Of a stretch of 17,296 bases of DNA, positions 5,694-11,746 are shown one piece after another. The stretch is from assembly GCA_963780945.1 (NCBI GenBank), contig CAWAFF010000021.1, positions 1 through 17,296 on the forward strand. The letters run 5' to 3'. Source of the stretch: an uncultured delta proteobacterium (GTDB taxonomy: Bacteria > Desulfobacterota > Desulfuromonadia > Geobacterales > Geobacteraceae). Every line of letters begins with the position of its first letter. Position 1 is the stretch's first letter. Below the pieces are notes generated by a model. The model was given only the letters and a program-made list of their open reading frames with translations, had not been told where the DNA came from and did not search any database. The translations under genes and the position numbers were made by a program.

Positions 5694-7088
5694 TTAATCT
5701 TCCGATTCTCCACCCGGGGCCATTTTCACCAACTTGGGATGAAAGGTGGCCACGATCTCCACCAAATCGCTTTGAGCTGCCATGACGGCCTCAATGTCCT
5801 TGTATGCCATGGGTACCTCGTCCAGCCCACCGGAGATAAGAGTAACGCCCCTTTGCTCCAGAAATCTGGAGGCCTCAGCCCAGCTGCATTTGGTTTTGGC
5901 CGCTGTCCTGCTCATTTTCCGTCCTGCACCGTGAGACGCGGAGTTTAGGGAAGCAGCCTCACCTTTGCCACGCACCACATATCCCGGTGTTCCCATGGAC
6001 CCGGGTATTACGCCGAGAACTCCTTTTCCGGCAGGTGTAGCACCCTTGCGGTGGACCACCACATCTTCCTCCTGATGCACTTCTTTCCAGGCGAAATTAT
6101 GGTGGTTCTCCACGTCAAGCAGCACTCTCGAGCCCAGGTTTTTAGCAATAGCGCGATGGATAAGCTCATGGTTGGCTGAAGAGTAGAGTCCCATAAGCTC
6201 CATGGCCTGCCAGTATTCCTGGCCTTCTTCGCTTTCCAGGTCTAGCCAGGCCAGGTTCTGCAATTCCTTAGGCAGCTCCGGATGCCGTCTCTGTGCTGCT
6301 TTACTGTAATGTTGGGCGACAGCGTTTCCACTGCCGCGGCTGCCGCTGTGGCTGAGAAGCGCAAGGTAGGTGCCCGCAGCAAGTCCAAGGTCGGCGCTTT
6401 CCAAGACGAGCTCGCCGAACTCGACAAAATGATTGCCGCTACCGCTGGTCCCCAATTGGCTCCAGGCTTTGTCTTTGAGTGAATGGGTCGTTTTGGTGAC
6501 ACCCCAGTCTGCGTCCATGACCGCATGTTCCCTTCGGGCACGGAAGCTTGCTCCAACACCGAACCGGGTTTCCTCCTGGATGGCCCGCTTTAGATTTCCT
6601 TGCTGCTCAGTAATTGCCGAAGCGGGGAGATCAAGGACTGTAATTTTCATCCGGCAGGCTATATCCATTCCCACTGCATATGGTATTACCACCCCCCTGG
6701 TGGCAAGTACACCTCCAATGGGAAGACCGTAACCTTGATGGGCGTCCGGCATTAAAGCGCCGGCCATGGACACGGGGAGTCTGCAGGCGTTTTCCATCTG
6801 TGCTATAGCTGTGGGCTCAAGTCCTTCCCCCCATTGACGATAGGGAGCGGGCTCTTTTCTGCCCCGGAAGTTTGCCTGGTCCAGGTGTACCGCCTGCAAA
6901 GAGGCGGCAAAGACTCCAAAATGAGGGTCTGCAGTGTAGTTGACCGGGTTTTCGGAGAGGGCTGTGATGACGGCGCGAATCTGCTCTTTACCGACTCCTG
7001 CCTCTGCAGCTGCGGCTATGGTTGCCTGCGCCTCTCTCATGATCTCCCCGCGTGGGATTCCTAAATTTTGTAGCTCTCGTGCTTTCAT
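5694..7088 (-). CDS. rtcB: RNA-splicing ligase RtcB (3'-phosphate/5'-OH RNA ligase)
   Basis: RtcB hallmarks are present: metal-binding His clusters, GSMGTPGYVV, ...HHNFAWKE..., and the C-terminal SHGAGR motif. The start is set at ATG 7088, which is preceded by a strong RBS (AAGGAGAGG, 3-nt spacer). The ORF-track start at 7208 has no RBS and would overlap rtcA by 35 nt. Confidence 0.9.
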   Translation of the reverse strand: MKARELQNLGIPRGEIMREAQATIAAAAEAGVGKEQIRAVITALSENPVNYTADPHFGVFAASLQAVHLDQANFRGRKEPAPYRQWGEGLEPTAIAQMENACRLPVSMAGALMPDAHQGYGLPIGGVLATRGVVIPYAVGMDIACRMKITVLDLPASAITEQQGNLKRAIQEETRFGVGASFRARREHAVMDADWGVTKTTHSLKDKAWSQLGTSGSGNHFVEFGELVLESADLGLAAGTYLALLSHSGSRGSGNAVAQHYSKAAQRRHPELPKELQNLAWLDLESEEGQEYWQAMELMGLYSSANHELIHRAIAKNLGSRVLLDVENHHNFAWKEVHQEEDVVVHRKGATPAGKGVLGVIPGSMGTPGYVVRGKGEAASLNSASHGAGRKMSRTAAKTKCSWAEASRFLEQRGVTLISGGLDEVPMAYKDIEAVMAAQSDLVEIVATFHPKLVKMAPGGESED

Positions 7089-7173
7089 AATCCTCTCCTT
7101 AAACGGTTCCCTGGGCACTTGCCCCGGCACCGCCGCCTCTCCCTGAACAGCAGAAGAGGCGGCATGAATAAAT

Positions 7174-8199
7174 TCAACGTTGTTGTTCCACCCGTATTTC
7201 CCAGTCATTCCGGTTAAGCTGCAACATGGTCACTTCCACGGGTAGAAACTTTCGCAGTATCTCCACATTGGTGGTCATGTGACGGGTGGGGGCGAGGGTG
7301 CGGAAGCTTCCGCCTTTGGCCAGAGCCATCGGCAAGAGCAGTTGGTCGGCCAGGTAGCTGCCCACCGGAACGTTGGCGGCTAGATACTCTTCGACCTCTT
7401 TAATGGTCTCCCGTGCCACCTTCTCGGCACTAACACCCATTTCACCGAAACCGGTGAACACTTCGGTGATGAATTCACTCTCTATCTGGACAGTGAGGGC
7501 GTTTCCTGGTCCGGGAGAGGAGGCTGCTTCCTCTATGATCAATGAATCCTCATCCCATCCAAGCCTCTCCTGCACCACCTTCAATTCGCGTTCCGCAATC
7601 TGTTTGGGAAGTCTCGCCACCATGGCACGTGCCGTCCTGTTAAGGATAGGCCCCCGGTCTGGCAAGTCGAGTCGTACCAGTTGTGAAACCGGTTCAATTG
7701 ATATGGTGAATGCGCCCCCTCCAGCCGGATAAAAGCCCGGCCGCAGCAAAGTGGCGGAAACCTTTGGTCCCATGCGGTTAACAAGGGGGAGAAAGGCCTG
7801 CTCCAGAAAGTCGAAGGGGGGCGCATATGGGTTGTGGGTTCCACCTTCCAGCAACAGTTCCGAGGTGCTCTCGGTGGTTAGCAGAGCCGGCAACACCGTT
7901 TGCAAGACAAGGGTACAGCTGCCTGCGGTTCCGATGGCAAAGTGATATCTTCCCCCGGTGACCTTTCCTGGGACAAAGTGAAGGTTTTGCGACCCAATGG
8001 AGGCTCCCTCAACACTGGCACCGCTGATGGACGCTGCAGCGTTGACTGCTGTCAAATGCTGACGCATCAAACCCGGCTTCTTTCGCCCGGCGCGAATTTT
8101 CTCCATGCGAAACGGCTGGCCCGTCACAAGGGACAGGGCAAGGGATGTACGGAGAATTTGACCTCCGCCTTCGCCAAGTGAACCATCGATAACAATCAT
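7174..8199 (-). CDS. rtcA: RNA 3'-terminal phosphate cyclase RtcA
   Basis: 341 aa. N-terminus MIVIDGSLGEGGGQILRTSLALS is the RtcA signature. GAGGAGG RBS lies 5 nt upstream of ATG 8199. Confidence 0.9.
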   Translation of the reverse strand: MIVIDGSLGEGGGQILRTSLALSLVTGQPFRMEKIRAGRKKPGLMRQHLTAVNAAASISGASVEGASIGSQNLHFVPGKVTGGRYHFAIGTAGSCTLVLQTVLPALLTTESTSELLLEGGTHNPYAPPFDFLEQAFLPLVNRMGPKVSATLLRPGFYPAGGGAFTISIEPVSQLVRLDLPDRGPILNRTARAMVARLPKQIAERELKVVQERLGWDEDSLIIEEAASSPGPGNALTVQIESEFITEVFTGFGEMGVSAEKVARETIKEVEEYLAANVPVGSYLADQLLLPMALAKGGSFRTLAPTRHMTTNVEILRKFLPVEVTMLQLNRNDWEIRVEQQR

Positions 8200-10123: not shown

Positions 10124-10153
10124 CCTGATTTATAAACATTTAGAGGCTAATAT

Positions 10154-11746
10154 ATGAAAGAAACAGTGGTGATTGGTCTGCTTGGGCCGGTCCTTGATCA
10201 GGGAACAGGAAACAAGCGCTGGGAGCGCTGGCGACCGACCGTAGCCCTCTGCCAGCACGAAGACCTGCTTATCGGGCGGTTTGTGCTCCTCTATCAAAAA
10301 CGATACAGCCGCCTGCTGGAGCAGGTTACCGCCGACATCCACCAGGTCTCTCCCGAGACAGAGGTCATTCCCTATGCTATGGAATTCGACGATGCATGGG
10401 ATTTCGAAAACGTCTACAGCTCACTCCACGACTTTACCCGCAGCTTTCCCTTCGATCCGGAGAAGGAAGAATATCTGGTCCATATCACCACCGGGACCCA
10501 TGTGGCCCAGATCTGTCTTTTTCTCCTTACAGAGTCACACTTTCTTCCCGCCAAGCTCATTCAGACCAGCCCAGCGCGGCGTCTGGAGAACAAGGCAGCC
10601 GGCACCTTTACCATCATCGATCTTGACCTCTCAAAGTATGATCGCATCGCCATGCGCTTCAATCAGGAGAAAAAGGATGATATTTCCTTTCTGAAATCGG
10701 GGATCGAGACCCGTAATCATCGTTTCAATCAGCTCATGGAACAGATCGAGCGTGTGGCCATAAACTCCATCGATCCGATTCTGCTGACAGGTCCCACGGG
10801 GGCGGGAAAATCACAACTGGCCCGCCGCATTTATGCCCTTAAAAAGGCCCGCCGCCAGCTCAAGGGGGAGTTCGTCGAGGTTAACTGTGCCACCCTCCGG
10901 GGAGATGCAGCCATGTCGGCGCTGTTCGGGCACAAGCGAGGGGCCTTCACCGGAGCACTCCAGGACCGTCATGGACTGCTGCGCTCCGCCGACGGCGGCA
11001 TGCTCTTCCTGGACGAAGTGGGGGAGCTGGGACTCGATGAACAGGCAATGCTGCTGCGGGCCATTGAGGAGAAATCCTTCTTTCCGGTGGGAGCCGATCG
11101 CGAAGTTACTTCCGATTTCAAGCTGCTCTGCGGTACCAACCGCAACTTGCAGGCAAGTGTGGAGCAGGGTGCCTTTCGCGAAGACCTGCTGGCTCGTATC
11201 AACCTGTGGACCTTCAGCCTGCCTGGCCTGCGGGAGCGCCCTGAGGATGTGGAGCCCAATCTAGATTACGAGCTGGACCGTTTCACGGAAAGGACCGGCA
11301 CACGCATCACCTTCAACCGGGAAGCCCGGCAGAAATTCCTATCGTTTGCCACCTCAGGCGAAGCTTCATGGTCGGCCAACTTTCGGGATCTGAGCGGTGC
11401 CGTTACCCGCATGGCAACACTGGCACCCGGTGGGCGGATTACAGCCGAGGTGGTAGCTGACGAGATGGACCGGCTCCGTTTGTCCTGGCCCAAAGCTGAG
11501 GGCACTATAGACGACATTCTTTTAGAAATACTGGGGGAGGACGCTGCGCTTGGACTGGATGTTTTCGACAAAGTGCAGTTGACTGAGGTGCTGCATGTCT
11601 GTCGCGCTTCAAAAAGTCTTTCCGGTGCGGGTCGAACGCTGTTCCAGGTGTCACGGCAGGAAAAAAAGAACCCCAATGATGCCGACCGCTTAAGGAAATA
11701 TTTGGCGAGGTTTGGCATCGACTGGAAGGATGTGGAAAAGAAGTAA
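10154..11746 (+). CDS. rtcR: Sigma54-dependent transcriptional activator RtcR (N-terminal CARF domain, AAA+ sigma54-interaction domain, C-terminal HTH)
   Basis: 530 aa, near-collinear with E. coli RtcR. The CARF region (...WERWRPTVALCQHEDL...VSPETEV...WDFENVYSSLHDF...HITTGTHVAQICLFLL...LIQTSP) is conserved. The AAA+ domain has Walker A (GPTGAGKS), the GAFTGA motif and ESELFGH-equivalent (ALFGHKRGAFTGA). The C-terminus has ...DADRLRKYLARFG. Confidence 0.9.
   Translation: MKETVVIGLLGPVLDQGTGNKRWERWRPTVALCQHEDLLIGRFVLLYQKRYSRLLEQVTADIHQVSPETEVIPYAMEFDDAWDFENVYSSLHDFTRSFPFDPEKEEYLVHITTGTHVAQICLFLLTESHFLPAKLIQTSPARRLENKAAGTFTIIDLDLSKYDRIAMRFNQEKKDDISFLKSGIETRNHRFNQLMEQIERVAINSIDPILLTGPTGAGKSQLARRIYALKKARRQLKGEFVEVNCATLRGDAAMSALFGHKRGAFTGALQDRHGLLRSADGGMLFLDEVGELGLDEQAMLLRAIEEKSFFPVGADREVTSDFKLLCGTNRNLQASVEQGAFREDLLARINLWTFSLPGLRERPEDVEPNLDYELDRFTERTGTRITFNREARQKFLSFATSGEASWSANFRDLSGAVTRMATLAPGGRITAEVVADEMDRLRLSWPKAEGTIDDILLEILGEDAALGLDVFDKVQLTEVLHVCRASKSLSGAGRTLFQVSRQEKKNPNDADRLRKYLARFGIDWKDVEKK

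Follow-up and report, generated by a model that had tools for sequence, protein, structure and literature searches.

The closest described systems couple RNA-repair enzymes to a scaffold protein and a tRNA-like RNA. In Salmonella, RtcR is activated by damaged tRNAs (fragments with a 2′,3′-cyclic phosphate). The rsr-yrlBA-rtcBA operon is read from a sigma54 promoter divergent from rtcR, and the same operon holds, upstream of rtcB and rtcA, the genes for an RNA-binding scaffold protein (Ro60) and for YrlA, an RNA one domain of which resembles a tRNA. A related arrangement was predicted by Burroughs and Aravind (2016). As far as it is described in a later preprint (bioRxiv 10.1101/312249), RtcB is encoded beside a Band-7 protein and a "band-7-associated tRNA", abbreviated b7a-tRNA, and this module is proposed to be redundant or functionally equivalent with YrlA and Rsr (Ro60). 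The b7a-tRNA is stated as not validated in that 2018 preprint. An rtcR / PA4582 / rtcB / PA4584 / rtcA operon has been described in P. aeruginosa. In Anabaena, members of the translational-stress (TrcR) regulon include a tRNA array, an HNH gene, rtcB and the slipin gene alr0740; L-arrays carry an HNH endonuclease gene and share their regulation with rtcB. Also among the closest known systems is the eukaryotic vault (major vault protein and vault RNA).

Layout of the Rtc locus

The locus lies in a window of 17,296 nt (the whole stretch of DNA that was analyzed) and belongs to the "Band-7 plus tRNA-like RNA" type of RNA-repair operon, with control by RtcR/sigma54 (Table 1). On the minus strand, an RNA of ~490 nt is followed by the SPFH gene, rtcA and rtcB, and rtcR is divergent on the plus strand. 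All of the elements listed in the initial annotation (rtcR, the sigma54 element, a tRNA-like element, an SPFH gene lacking transmembrane segments, rtcA and rtcB) are present at or near the positions it gave. Its description of the composition as atypical also holds. The G+C content is 0.52–0.61 over most of 5200–11800 and ~0.42–0.51 in the flanks, with 0.49 in the rtcR-promoter intergenic region.

Table 1. Features of the RtcR-controlled locus, in window coordinates.
Feature	Position	Strand	Basis
rtcR, sigma54-dependent activator (CARF + AAA+ + HTH)	10154..11746	+	Pfam RtcR 1.9e-84, Sigma54_activat 1.9e-49
sigma70-like putative promoter for rtcR, TTGACA-17-TATTAT, 11/12 matches	10095..10123	+	consensus scan only
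sigma54 -24/-12 element TGGCACAGGCGTTGT	9995..10009	-	TGGCAC-N5-TTGY match; predicted TSS ~9983
conserved structured non-coding RNA, ~490 nt	9488..9978	-	nhmmer profile, covariation, non-coding test
5′ domain of RNA	9882..9968	-	RNAalifold, compensatory changes in 7/12 pairs
tRNA-like domain (D, anticodon and T arms)	9808..9879	-	ARAGORN tRNA-Val(AAC); Rfam tRNA
two short hairpins, 3′ of tRNA-like domain	9776..9808	-	covarying helices 9 and 10
3′ domain of RNA	9497..9765	-	RNAalifold, compensatory changes in 19/22 pairs
soluble SPFH (slipin/stomatin-type) protein, 368 aa	8344..9450	-	Pfam Band_7 at 142-313
rtcA, RNA 3′-terminal phosphate cyclase	7174..8199	-	Pfam RTC 2.6e-80; RBS GAGGAGGAAGAG
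rtcB, RtcB-family RNA ligase, 464 aa	5694..7088	-	Pfam RtcB 1.6e-87; RBS AAGGAGAGG
G+C-rich inverted repeat directly after rtcB stop	5672..5692	.	terminator-like scan, listed on + strand

The NCBIfam equivalog NF038308 covers RtcR from end to end (1-529/530; 815.7 bits, cutoff 650), and RtcR also matches the PADLOC model "RtcR--CARF_AAA_HTH" (1-522/523). RtcA scores 456 bits against the equivalog NF003246 (cutoff 352). RtcB falls below the NCBIfam equivalog cutoffs (176 vs 407) and thus represents a divergent sub-family; its identity to RtcB from one related locus (L001) is 74%. The raw ORF list started rtcB at 7208. We rejected this start in favor of the ATG at 7088, which is preceded by AAGGAGAGG. 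The SPFH gene starts with the ATG that follows AAAGGAGAAAAAAC, and its product has two additional beta units at the N terminus, ahead of the SPFH domain, and ends with a long helix. We did not find a transmembrane segment in the SPFH protein (maximum Kyte-Doolittle 19-residue mean 1.22).

The sigma54 element is 145 nt from the rtcR ATG and is the sole match to TGGCAC-N5-TTGY in the window (chance expectation 0.10; at least one match in 18/200 shuffles). A counterpart of this element lies ahead of the RNA in 11/11 relatives linked to RtcR and in 0/45 relatives without RtcR; Syntrophotalea carbinolica has one too. The sigma70-like sequence, 31 nt upstream of the rtcR ATG, may drive rtcR itself. 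The repeat behind rtcB is likely a bidirectional terminator shared with the convergent gene at 5057–5665, and as such would also end the minus-strand operon. Nothing in the window argues for a separate promoter or terminator for the SPFH gene, in keeping with its initial placement within the RtcR/sigma54 unit.

The locus shares with Salmonella the divergent rtcR, the sigma54 promoter and the pairing of a scaffold protein with a tRNA-like RNA ahead of the Rtc genes. An SPFH protein stands here in place of TROVE/Ro60, and no TROVE/Ro60 gene was found in the window. The initial annotation had described an RtcR/sigma54-type Rtc locus without rsr, with an SPFH protein and a tRNA mimic where Salmonella has Ro60 and Y RNA, and this description stands. 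The window RNA has three to four times the length of YrlA and lies 5′ of the protein gene, whereas YrlA lies on the 3′ side; no Ro-binding stem is recognizable in the window RNA. When the genes are compared, the P. aeruginosa operon shares the divergent rtcR and the SPFH gene (PA4582) in first position, but has the extra PA4584 and has rtcB ahead of rtcA. One SPFH relative (63% identity) is named "PA4582". Syntrophotalea carbinolica DSM 2380 has the identical gene order (rtcR / Band_7 / rtcA / rtcB) together with the sigma54 element, the RNA and its tRNA-like element. Measured against the b7a-tRNA module as the preprint describes it, the window agrees point by point (a Band-7 protein, a non-coding RNA resembling a tRNA, and RtcB). 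The b7a-tRNA is tRNA-sized according to this secondary source, whereas here the tRNA-like part takes up 72 nt in the middle of ~490, and most of the closest relatives here have the RNA-SPFH pair without an Rtc gene. The layout of RtcB, Band-7 and "band-7-associated tRNA" is already known from the 2016 prediction; in size and spread, the RNA goes well beyond what the "tRNA-like" label suggests. Thus, the label "uncharacterised variant" given initially fits the experimental status of the system, but not its layout, which had been predicted and for which the P. aeruginosa operon had been described.

Structure and conservation of the RNA

The initial annotation noted a tRNA mimic in the leader. 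The tRNA-like element is present, but this description understates the RNA: ~490 of the 533 non-coding nt form a single conserved structured RNA with a 5′ domain, a tRNA-like middle domain and a 270-nt 3′ domain. Conservation of the leader had been named beforehand as one of the points on which that annotation could fail, and it is strongly conserved in related genomes. The RNA is kept over ~500 nt in Desulfobacterota, Planctomycetota, Acidobacteriota and one Alcaligenaceae MAG, i.e., in at least three phyla. The structure that we derived has 17 helices with 77 pairs in all and is 90.4% paired. Covariation is 0.406 compared with 0.203 in shuffles (reached by 0/500) and 0.08–0.10 in slid controls, the latter comparison being inflated because the helices were partly derived from the alignment used for counting. 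Double-sided changes occur in 61/77 pairs, with at least one such pair in each of the 17 helices. RNAalifold recovered the main helices independently, as did the single-sequence MFE fold of the window RNA, which includes the closing helix of the 3′ domain; the folding energy of the window RNA is not exceptional (z = -1.4). The RNA is non-coding, with inconsistent frames and just 19% of gap runs in multiples of three.

The 5′ domain is closed by P1, an 11-bp helix (9968-9958 with 9892-9882), which encloses P2 (CCA/UGG, 9954-9952 with 9905-9903) and P3 (9947-9939 with 9922-9914). Changes on both sides are seen in 11/11 pairs of P1 and 7/9 pairs of P3. The conserved loops of this domain are CCARCGGCGCA and GUUCCGUA.AUGGGUUCUGAC. 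On the other side of the tRNA-like domain are two hairpins, H1 (CGGG/CCCG, 9808-9794) and H2 (9789-9776), each with three pairs showing double-sided changes. The 3′ domain is closed by a 13-bp long-range helix (9765-9750 with 9512-9497) around further nested helices, and helices 11–17 all have double-sided changes. Its conserved strands include GCC.UGCAG.G.G.GGAU.CCG and GCUCAA...CUCCGC.

The tRNA-like domain matches the Rfam tRNA model with 48.1 bits (gathering score 29), with pairs 1:72 and 7:66 mismatched and no CCA end. In the window the acceptor-like stem has 5 bp; the family as a whole conserves 3 (GGU/ACC), with a range of 3–7 bp. The T-loop reads UUCGAxU in 55/56 copies. The anticodon loop is 7 nt long in 43/56 copies, and its sequence is hypervariable, with 52 distinct loops among the 56 sequences; almost every species has an "anticodon" of its own, and among the calls are some of 2 and 4 nt and a stop anticodon. 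As read from these sequences, such a loop appears hard to reconcile with mimicry of one particular tRNA. Both ARAGORN and Rfam call the element a tRNA, and in Planctomycetota it directly follows long arrays of ordinary tRNA genes, as would a decayed or unusual tRNA gene (an array remnant or a real decoder with a rare anticodon) with the rest of the leader as spacer. The 400 flanking nt are, however, conserved and covarying, and only three acceptor pairs are kept across the family. Together with the mismatched pairs and the changing anticodons, this makes a decayed tRNA gene extremely improbable.

An Rfam search of the leader, which the initial annotation had proposed, returned this tRNA match and no other: no Rfam 15 model covers the ~490-nt RNA beyond its tRNA part. 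The RNA also has single-stranded blocks that are invariant or nearly so across phyla (e.g., GGAUACCGC, GCUCAA and CUCCGC). These blocks, the size of ~500 nt, the complex nested helices and the constant company of tRNA genes or tRNA-repair enzymes could point to a ribozyme that acts on tRNA-like substrates, processing or repairing them, and has the SPFH protein as a subunit, comparable to RNase P RNA and its protein. Such conservation also fits a protein-binding scaffold, and there is neither similarity to any known ribozyme nor a biochemical hint. We consider a ribozyme very unlikely.

Association of the RNA with the SPFH gene

We surveyed 80 loci with SPFH orthologues, the closest of at least 548 relatives, so that the 97% co-occurrence of RNA and SPFH gene may fail for the whole family. 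An nhmmer profile detected the RNA in 73 of these 80 loci, on the strand of the SPFH gene and upstream of it, and RtcR is present in just 11; most of the RNA-SPFH loci have no Rtc gene. Five of the seven loci missing the RNA are at contig ends, and the other two (L049 and L074) have upstream sequence yet no RNA. Thus, the RNA goes with the SPFH protein and not with RtcR, and the SPFH protein is its conserved partner.

This distribution bears on the earlier proposal that the tRNA mimic acts mainly on RtcR, as a sensor, a decoy for an anticodon nuclease or a precursor of the CARF ligand (positive feedback). The proposal draws on the activation of RtcR by cyclic phosphate-ended tRNA fragments and on the retention of the anticodon stem with its mostly 7-nt loop. 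It does not sit well with the ~60 RNA-SPFH loci in which RtcR is absent from the surrounding 5 kb. Since the RNA is transcribed only from the RtcR-dependent promoter, it would be made after activation and cannot be the primary sensor. Unless there is an arms race, the many different anticodon loops argue against a defined nuclease target, and Salmonella YrlA is not cleaved by the inducing nuclease. The model also leaves the two non-tRNA domains (~350/490 nt) without a role. We therefore regard action on RtcR as improbable, and less likely than a particle formed by the RNA and the SPFH protein (see below).

The position of the RNA would fit a cis-acting role. For the 60 loci with no more than 250 nt between the RNA and the SPFH gene, the median gap to the ATG is 81 nt, and in the window both are on the same sigma54 transcript. 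We did not find a terminator-like site on the minus strand between the window RNA and the SPFH gene, or a U-tract after the RNA, and the RNA may therefore simply stay a 5′ UTR. A U-rich tail follows the closing helix in 27/44 loci without RtcR, and could be a regulated terminator. The RNA might then be a 5′ UTR sensor without a trans function, a T-box or riboswitch in reverse, through which a tRNA-related signal controls read-through or translation of SPFH/rtcAB. In 13 loci, however, a distance of 250 nt to 3.7 kb separates the RNA from the SPFH gene, some with intervening genes such as rtcB (L016) or AbiEii-like genes (L043, L065). An attenuator would not usually have such a size, three domains and loops that are near-invariant across phyla. 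The tRNA elbow is kept while the anticodon is unconstrained, and the analogous Y RNAs of rtc operons work in trans. A purely cis-acting leader is thus unlikely.

A putative RNA-SPFH particle and its genomic contexts

The reading that we favor, with somewhat better than even confidence and from sequence comparison, is a particle similar to Ro/Y-RNA, made up of the RNA and the SPFH protein, that serves responses to tRNA damage and is here under the control of RtcR and sigma54. By analogy with Salmonella, tRNA fragments with a 2′,3′-cyclic phosphate would activate RtcR, and sigma54 RNA polymerase would start near 9983 and transcribe in turn the structured RNA, the SPFH gene, rtcA and rtcB. The RNA would be more than a passive leader. 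Between its 5′ domain and its large 3′ domain, the tRNA-like core keeps the tRNA elbow (D and T arms), while the anticodon loop runs free and the acceptor stem is shortened. The RNA may be a dedicated partner of the soluble SPFH protein. The latter probably forms a ring or cage, as other SPFH proteins do. Acting as a scaffold or cofactor, the particle could present damaged tRNAs (or enzymes that bind tRNA) to RtcA and RtcB, or protect them for these two, much as has been proposed for Ro60 and the tRNA-like Y RNA YrlA in enterobacterial rtc operons.

The conserved core is the RNA-SPFH pair, and RtcR with RtcAB is one of several contexts in which it occurs; another is long, horizontally transferred arrays of tRNA genes. 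In Planctomycetota and Acidobacteriota, the pair is located at the 3′ end of tRNA arrays that have an HNH gene inside, and in Planctomycetota the RNA ends arrays of up to 37 tRNA genes. The four kinds of components in the Anabaena regulon are those physically linked in the Planctomycetota loci, with alr0740 likened to the SPFH gene as a slipin. The window differs from the Anabaena L-arrays in having no tRNA array and in its control by RtcR/sigma54 instead of TrcR. In three loci, the SPFH gene is followed by the RNA-repair nucleotidyltransferase RlaP.

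The rtc locus and its known counterparts

The regulator of the rtc locus is a complete RtcR. It matches the NCBIfam equivalog NF038308 over its full length, with 815.7 bits where the cutoff is 650, and the PADLOC model RtcR--CARF_AAA_HTH over positions 1-522 of 523. RtcR was also the only PADLOC match in the window, and a known defence system was rejected on that basis. Chance alone would give 0.10 matches to TGGCAC-N5-TTGY over the 17.3 kb of the window; the predicted sigma54 element that diverges from rtcR is the single one. A separate promoter for the SPFH gene was considered and rejected. 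The sole nearby sigma70-like match (9468-9440, 9/12) ends downstream of the SPFH ATG and is therefore unable to serve the gene. The mechanical ORF of rtcB (5694-7208, 504 aa) overlaps rtcA by 35 nt. Because the ribosome binding site and the homologues agree on the ATG at 7088, this is predicted to be the real start of rtcB, not 7208. The encoded RtcB passes the Pfam model only and scores well below the NCBIfam equivalog cutoffs, and it therefore belongs to a divergent sub-family. RtcB proteins of two types, 63-74% and 34-38% identical, occur among the RtcR-linked relatives.

Features of the rtc locus in the window and of related loci (coordinates of related loci refer to each locus)
Feature	Location	Strand	Remarks
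rtcB	5694-7088	-	Pfam RtcB 1.6e-87; 464 aa; ATG 7088 behind AAGGAGAGG
rtcA	7174-8199	-	Pfam RTC 2.6e-80; above NCBIfam equivalog cutoff
SPFH gene	8344-9450	-	368 aa; Band_7 1e-35; ATG behind AAAGGAGA; followed by rtcA and rtcB on the same strand
Structured RNA	about 9978-9488	-	Starts ~5 nt past the predicted sigma54 start; ends 38 nt before the SPFH ATG
tRNA-like element	9879-9808	-	ARAGORN tRNA-Val(AAC); Rfam tRNA 48.1 bits; lies 357 nt ahead of the SPFH start codon
Predicted sigma54 element TGGCACAGGCGTTGT	10009-9995	-	-24 GG / -12 GC-type; divergent from rtcR
Predicted sigma70-like promoter	10095-10123	+	Own promoter of rtcR
rtcR	10154-11746	+	CARF-like N-terminal domain, sigma54-interaction AAA+ domain, HTH; complete
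tRNA arrays, Planctomycetota	L008, L011, L020, L021, L025, L027, L028, L034, L035, L037, L041, L050, L052, L056, L066; about 1-4500 each		
tRNA arrays, Acidobacteriota	L040, L044; about 1-4500 each		
HNH gene, examples	L011 2864-3676; L029 985-1590; L056 2556-3152		
RlaP (PF10127, 4e-43)	L025 6341-8024; L044 7101-7859; L052 6130-8686		RNA-repair-pathway Pol-beta nucleotidyltransferase; just downstream of the SPFH gene

We know of no experiment that has examined the Band-7/tRNA-like alternative to the Ro60/Y RNA-type accessory modules of bacterial RNA-repair operons. The abstract of the 2016 paper by Burroughs and Aravind reportedly puts forward, as putative scaffold-type cofactors in RNA repair, "SPFH/Band-7 modules" with "a novel tRNA-like molecule". 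With this Band-7/b7a-tRNA module, as defined in a secondary description, the window shares a Band-7 gene next to RtcB plus a predicted ncRNA that strongly resembles a tRNA. A 2018 preprint on YrlA (bioRxiv 10.1101/312249), citing the same work, mentions RtcB beside a Band-7 protein and a predicted ncRNA in certain bacteria, and notes that this ncRNA lacked experimental validation. With RtcR-regulated Rtc operons the window shares RtcR, the predicted divergent sigma54 promoter, the RtcB ligase and the RtcA cyclase. It differs from the Ro60/Y RNA (rsr-yrlA) module in that the TROVE protein Ro60 (Rsr) is missing: a scan of 20 window ORFs, 19 of them 84 aa or longer and the last being the ORF of the SPFH N-terminal extension, gave no TROVE/Ro60 match. 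An operon of the order rtcR/PA4582/rtcB/PA4584/rtcA has already been described in P. aeruginosa, and one relative of the SPFH protein, 63% identical to it, is named after PA4582. The layout in Syntrophotalea carbinolica DSM 2380 is the same as that of the window. There, RtcR is divergent from TGGCACGGCCTTTGT, and the order is the RNA, the tRNA-like "Leu(CAG)", Band_7, RTC, RtcB and an IS element. Because of the 2016 prediction, the P. aeruginosa operon and the S. carbinolica layout, the window locus is an already known, computationally predicted arrangement. The initial annotation had listed RtcR, the sigma54 element, the tRNA-like element, SPFH, rtcA, rtcB, the absence of Ro60 and an atypical composition, and all of these were recovered. 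Its description of an Rtc locus with a tRNA mimic and an SPFH protein but no Ro60 stands; its claim that this is an uncharacterised variant of the Rtc system does not.

The G+C content is about 0.52-0.61 over most of the rtc locus (5200-11800), 0.49 in the intergenic region between rtcR and the promoter, and about 0.42-0.51 in the flanks, which places the locus roughly 5-10 points above its surroundings. In S. carbinolica an IS with an rve transposase directly follows the same operon (locus L087, 9739-10904). The raised G+C and the adjoining IS both fit acquisition by horizontal transfer. Elsewhere in the window, at 1359-1936 on the plus strand, two neighbouring ORFs of 107 aa and 84 aa abut at 1682. 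The latter matches the staphylococcal nuclease profile solely over the profile's C-terminal part (45-107 of 107). A frameshift or a sequencing error may have divided what is one thermonuclease-like gene.

A structured RNA of about 490 nt

We aligned the window's intergenic region with those of nine relatives, and the conserved blocks reach far past the tRNA-like part. A profile built from this alignment and searched against 80 genomic loci matched a stretch of about 500 nt ahead of the SPFH gene in almost every one. The structure was assembled on a 56-sequence alignment of the RNA (A6) and comprises 17 helices with 77 pairs. The 5′ domain is closed by an 11-bp helix, P1, with the helices P2 (CCA/UGG) and P3 inside. 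Next come the tRNA-like cloverleaf and two short hairpins. A 3′ domain of ~270 nt follows, in which a long-range closing helix of 13 bp (GCC..GGGAGGCGG with CCGCCUCCC..GGC) holds four nested helices. In the consensus the ends of the RNA are unpaired with each other; the tRNA-like domain is present, and each flanking domain closes on itself.

The observed share of paired cells was 90.4%, vs. 78.2% after shuffling and 36-41% in slid controls, and the covariation score was 0.406, vs. 0.203 after shuffling (reached in 0 of 500) and 0.08-0.10 in slid controls, a comparison that favours the helices over the slid controls since they were chosen partly from A6 itself. Changes on both sides occur in 61 of the 77 pairs, with at least one such pair in every helix. 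Three results are independent of the choice of helices. When the two domains were aligned separately, RNAalifold gave compensatory changes in 7/12 pairs of the 5′ domain and 19/22 pairs of the 3′ domain. The minimum free energy fold of the window sequence alone gives P1 and the closing helix as well as both hairpins and, within the cloverleaf, the anticodon and T arms. The folding energy of the window RNA was uninformative on structure (z = -1.4). We also considered a protein-coding leader and rejected it: the frame with the longest open stretch is inconsistent among the 56 homologues (29, 19 and 8 per frame), and just 19% of gap runs have a length divisible by three.

In Rfam 15 the only family matched by the window RNA was RF00005, and its non-tRNA parts matched none at gathering score or at E up to 10. 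The tRNA-like element scored 48.1 bits on this tRNA family, and Y RNA families gave no Rfam match in the window, even at E up to 10. Among five relatives searched at gathering score, four returned the tRNA part only and one (locus L001) returned nothing.

The tRNA-like domain keeps the elbow of a tRNA. The D stem is 100% paired, the T stem 99.6%, and the T-loop UUCGAxU is present in 55/56 copies. It lacks the 7-bp acceptor stem and the conserved decoding anticodon of a canonical tRNA. The acceptor stem of the window copy forms 5 pairs, 1:72 and 7:66 being mismatches, and a CCA is absent; across the family only three acceptor pairs (GGU/ACC) are conserved, in contiguous stems of 3-7 bp. The anticodon stem covaries, and its loop takes 52 different sequences in 56 copies, with lengths of 5-8 nt. 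The "anticodons" called by ARAGORN in relatives include AAG, AGC, AUG, AUU, ACU and UUA, plus calls of 2 and 4 nt. This pattern fits a structural tRNA mimic inside a larger fold, as in YrlA, and would not suit a decoder. We consider a decayed tRNA highly improbable. The anticodon loop lies at 9850-9843 in the window (A6 columns 294-301) and differs in nearly every species; several of the loops listed (CCGUGAA, CCAUGAA, CUCAUAA) have C and a pyrimidine first and AA last.

In the 10 nt after the closing helix (A6 columns 915-924), a U-rich tail is found in 27 of 44 loci without RtcR vs. 3 of 12 RtcR-linked loci; in the window these 10 nt are not U-rich. The tail suggests an independent RNA end in loci without RtcR and read-through in Rtc operons. 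A U-tract after a helix whose strands lie ~450 nt apart would be an unusual terminator-like arrangement.

Genomic partners of the RNA

The census covered 80 loci with SPFH orthologues (55-78% identity), the best 80 of at least 548 relatives. The closest relative of the window protein (78% identity) comes from an uncultured Geobacter MAG. Within these best 80, the RNA lies upstream of the SPFH gene on the same strand in 73 loci, and five of the seven loci without it are contig ends. The leader is strongly conserved in related genomes, and the initial annotation's reading therefore does not fail on this count. The RNA ends less than 250 nt from the SPFH ATG in 60/73 loci, with a median gap there of 81 nt. 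It lies at least 250 nt from the SPFH gene in the other 13, with intervening genes in some, which speaks against a leader that acts purely in cis. We regard a cis-regulatory leader as unlikely.

RtcR is present in only 11/80 loci, and two more have RtcA and RtcB at the contig start; these are Desulfobacterota-type loci and a few MAGs. Neither RtcR nor RtcA lies within 5 kb in the remaining loci, most of which are from Planctomycetota, some from Acidobacteriota and one from an Alcaligenaceae MAG. A weak RtcB-family match alone is found in three loci lacking RtcR and RtcA (L022, L056, and L073). The constant partner of the RNA thus appears to be the SPFH protein, not RtcR. The initial annotation had proposed the tRNA mimic as a ligand or decoy of RtcR. 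The RNA tracks the SPFH protein across the 73 loci and RtcR in few of them, and we consider a ligand or decoy role quite improbable. Since the sigma54 element is conserved in 11/11 RtcR-linked relatives and absent from 45/45 relatives without RtcR, control by RtcR and sigma54 is apparently a lineage-specific wiring of a module that also exists without RtcR. AbiEii-type nucleotidyltransferase toxin genes (PF08843, 4e-11) occur near the module in four loci (L043 2226-2798, L065 2052-2624, L039 9795-10370, and L049 83-781), and in two of these, L043 and L065, they separate the RNA from the SPFH gene.

Arrays of as many as 37 tRNA genes, all on the strand of the RNA-SPFH pair, directly precede this pair in many Planctomycetota and in some Acidobacteriota. 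The arrays are near-complete tRNA sets, usually with tRNA-Cys(GCA) last and the RNA next. In 16 loci an HNH endonuclease gene of ~200 aa (PF01844, 6e-15) is found inside the array, between tRNA-His and tRNA-Trp. Three loci encode RlaP, and in these RtcA, RtcB and RtcR are all absent. These arrays match the "L-arrays", spread by horizontal transfer, that Santamaria-Gomez et al. (2021) described. In Anabaena, translational stress induces such an array along with an HNH gene and rtcB, and an HNH gene has been reported adjoining cyanobacterial L-arrays. The TrcR regulon, which controls the Anabaena array, includes the slipin alr0740, with the "hypothetical" alr0739 upstream. The linkage in Planctomycetota and the co-regulation in Anabaena are therefore two independent lines that join the same four kinds of component. 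As judged from sequence, a large covarying RNA has the b7a-tRNA as its core, and this RNA is linked both to tRNA arrays and, in several phyla, to a soluble SPFH protein. We did not find this described in the accessible literature; the 2016 paper of Burroughs and Aravind, which lay outside that search, could contain this point.

Two array cassettes (L008 and L011) lie on one contig, 50 kb apart. SPFH relatives also occur on four IMG/VR contigs, and on one of them a full array is joined by the RNA and the SPFH gene. On this contig (L082; UViG 3300007072_000340, 94 kb, classified as viral), 893-7086 holds 35 tRNA genes of the array, then the RNA (nhmmer 333 bits) and the SPFH gene, and the tRNA-like domain of its RNA is called tRNA-His(GTG). 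A phage origin of the SPFH gene was rejected, with no match in 50,697 GenBank phage records.

The SPFH protein and a possible RNA-protein particle

The SPFH protein has no hydrophobic segment or N-terminal membrane anchor of the stomatin kind (maximum 19-residue hydropathy 1.22). As in stomatin-like (slipin) proteins, a long coiled-coil helix comes after its SPFH alpha/beta domain. The AF2 model (pLDDT 83) places N-terminal beta units first, then the SPFH alpha/beta domain and a helix of ~60 residues. Residues 9-65 recur at 76-132 (E 8e-10) and once more where the Band_7 domain begins (E 3e-5), and the N-terminal extension is therefore two duplications of the SPFH beta unit.

In Salmonella, Rtc is induced via tRNA fragments with 2′,3′-cyclic phosphate ends. 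Gene content, the predicted promoter, RNA structure and the co-occurrence of RNA and SPFH protein are read directly from the sequences, and from them we infer that the following is fairly probable. RtcR, activated by damaged tRNA as in Salmonella, would drive one transcript, the first 490 nt of which would fold into the RNA. The RNA would then assemble with oligomeric SPFH protein into a particle. This particle may assist RtcA and RtcB on tRNA substrates, or it may shield tRNAs or tRNA-binding factors. The RNA may also be catalytic. That it is a ribozyme would be compatible with the particle, although we think this rather improbable.

The vault is a closed cage in which MVP, with its repeat domains, shoulder and cap helix, is joined by TEP1 and PARP4. 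A wider reading, which we offer only tentatively, is that an undescribed class of large, complex-folded bacterial ncRNA, with the b7a-tRNA as its central domain, and the soluble, repeat-extended SPFH protein form a Ro- or vault-like ring or cage. This particle would be the real conserved unit, joined to RtcR-RtcAB operons or to mobile arrays of 20-37 tRNA genes with HNH, and would act as a general device against attack on the tRNA pool.

What was a vague "tRNA-like leader" now has exact boundaries, a 17-helix structure backed by covariation, a predicted promoter that tracks RtcR, and a protein partner, the SPFH protein, which accompanies the RNA in three phyla or more. The association of long tRNA arrays, RtcB-type repair and slipins, known before only as co-regulation in one cyanobacterium, is in the present analysis also a physical linkage. 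Should the RNA-SPFH particle prove real, it would represent a soluble bacterial SPFH assembly that contains RNA, and it would add another large structured RNA. Cultured carriers include S. carbinolica DSM 2380, Trichlorobacter thiogenes ATCC BAA-34, Lacipirellula limnantheis I41 and Adhaeretor mobilis HG15A2.

A related layout is seen on a Citrobacter freundii plasmid (L081; NZ_CP151862.1, 3957-7910). Here rtcR is divergent from a sigma54-like element, which is followed by slipin and nucleotidyltransferase genes; rtcA and rtcB are absent, and the slipin is 33% identical to the window SPFH protein. In the 450-nt leader of this locus nhmmer found only a T-arm-like hairpin (UGGGUUCGAUUCCCA), and we rejected it as the same RNA; the enterobacterial leader is therefore different or strongly diverged. 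Slipin genes like that of the plasmid also occur in E. coli, Burkholderia and Photobacterium records.
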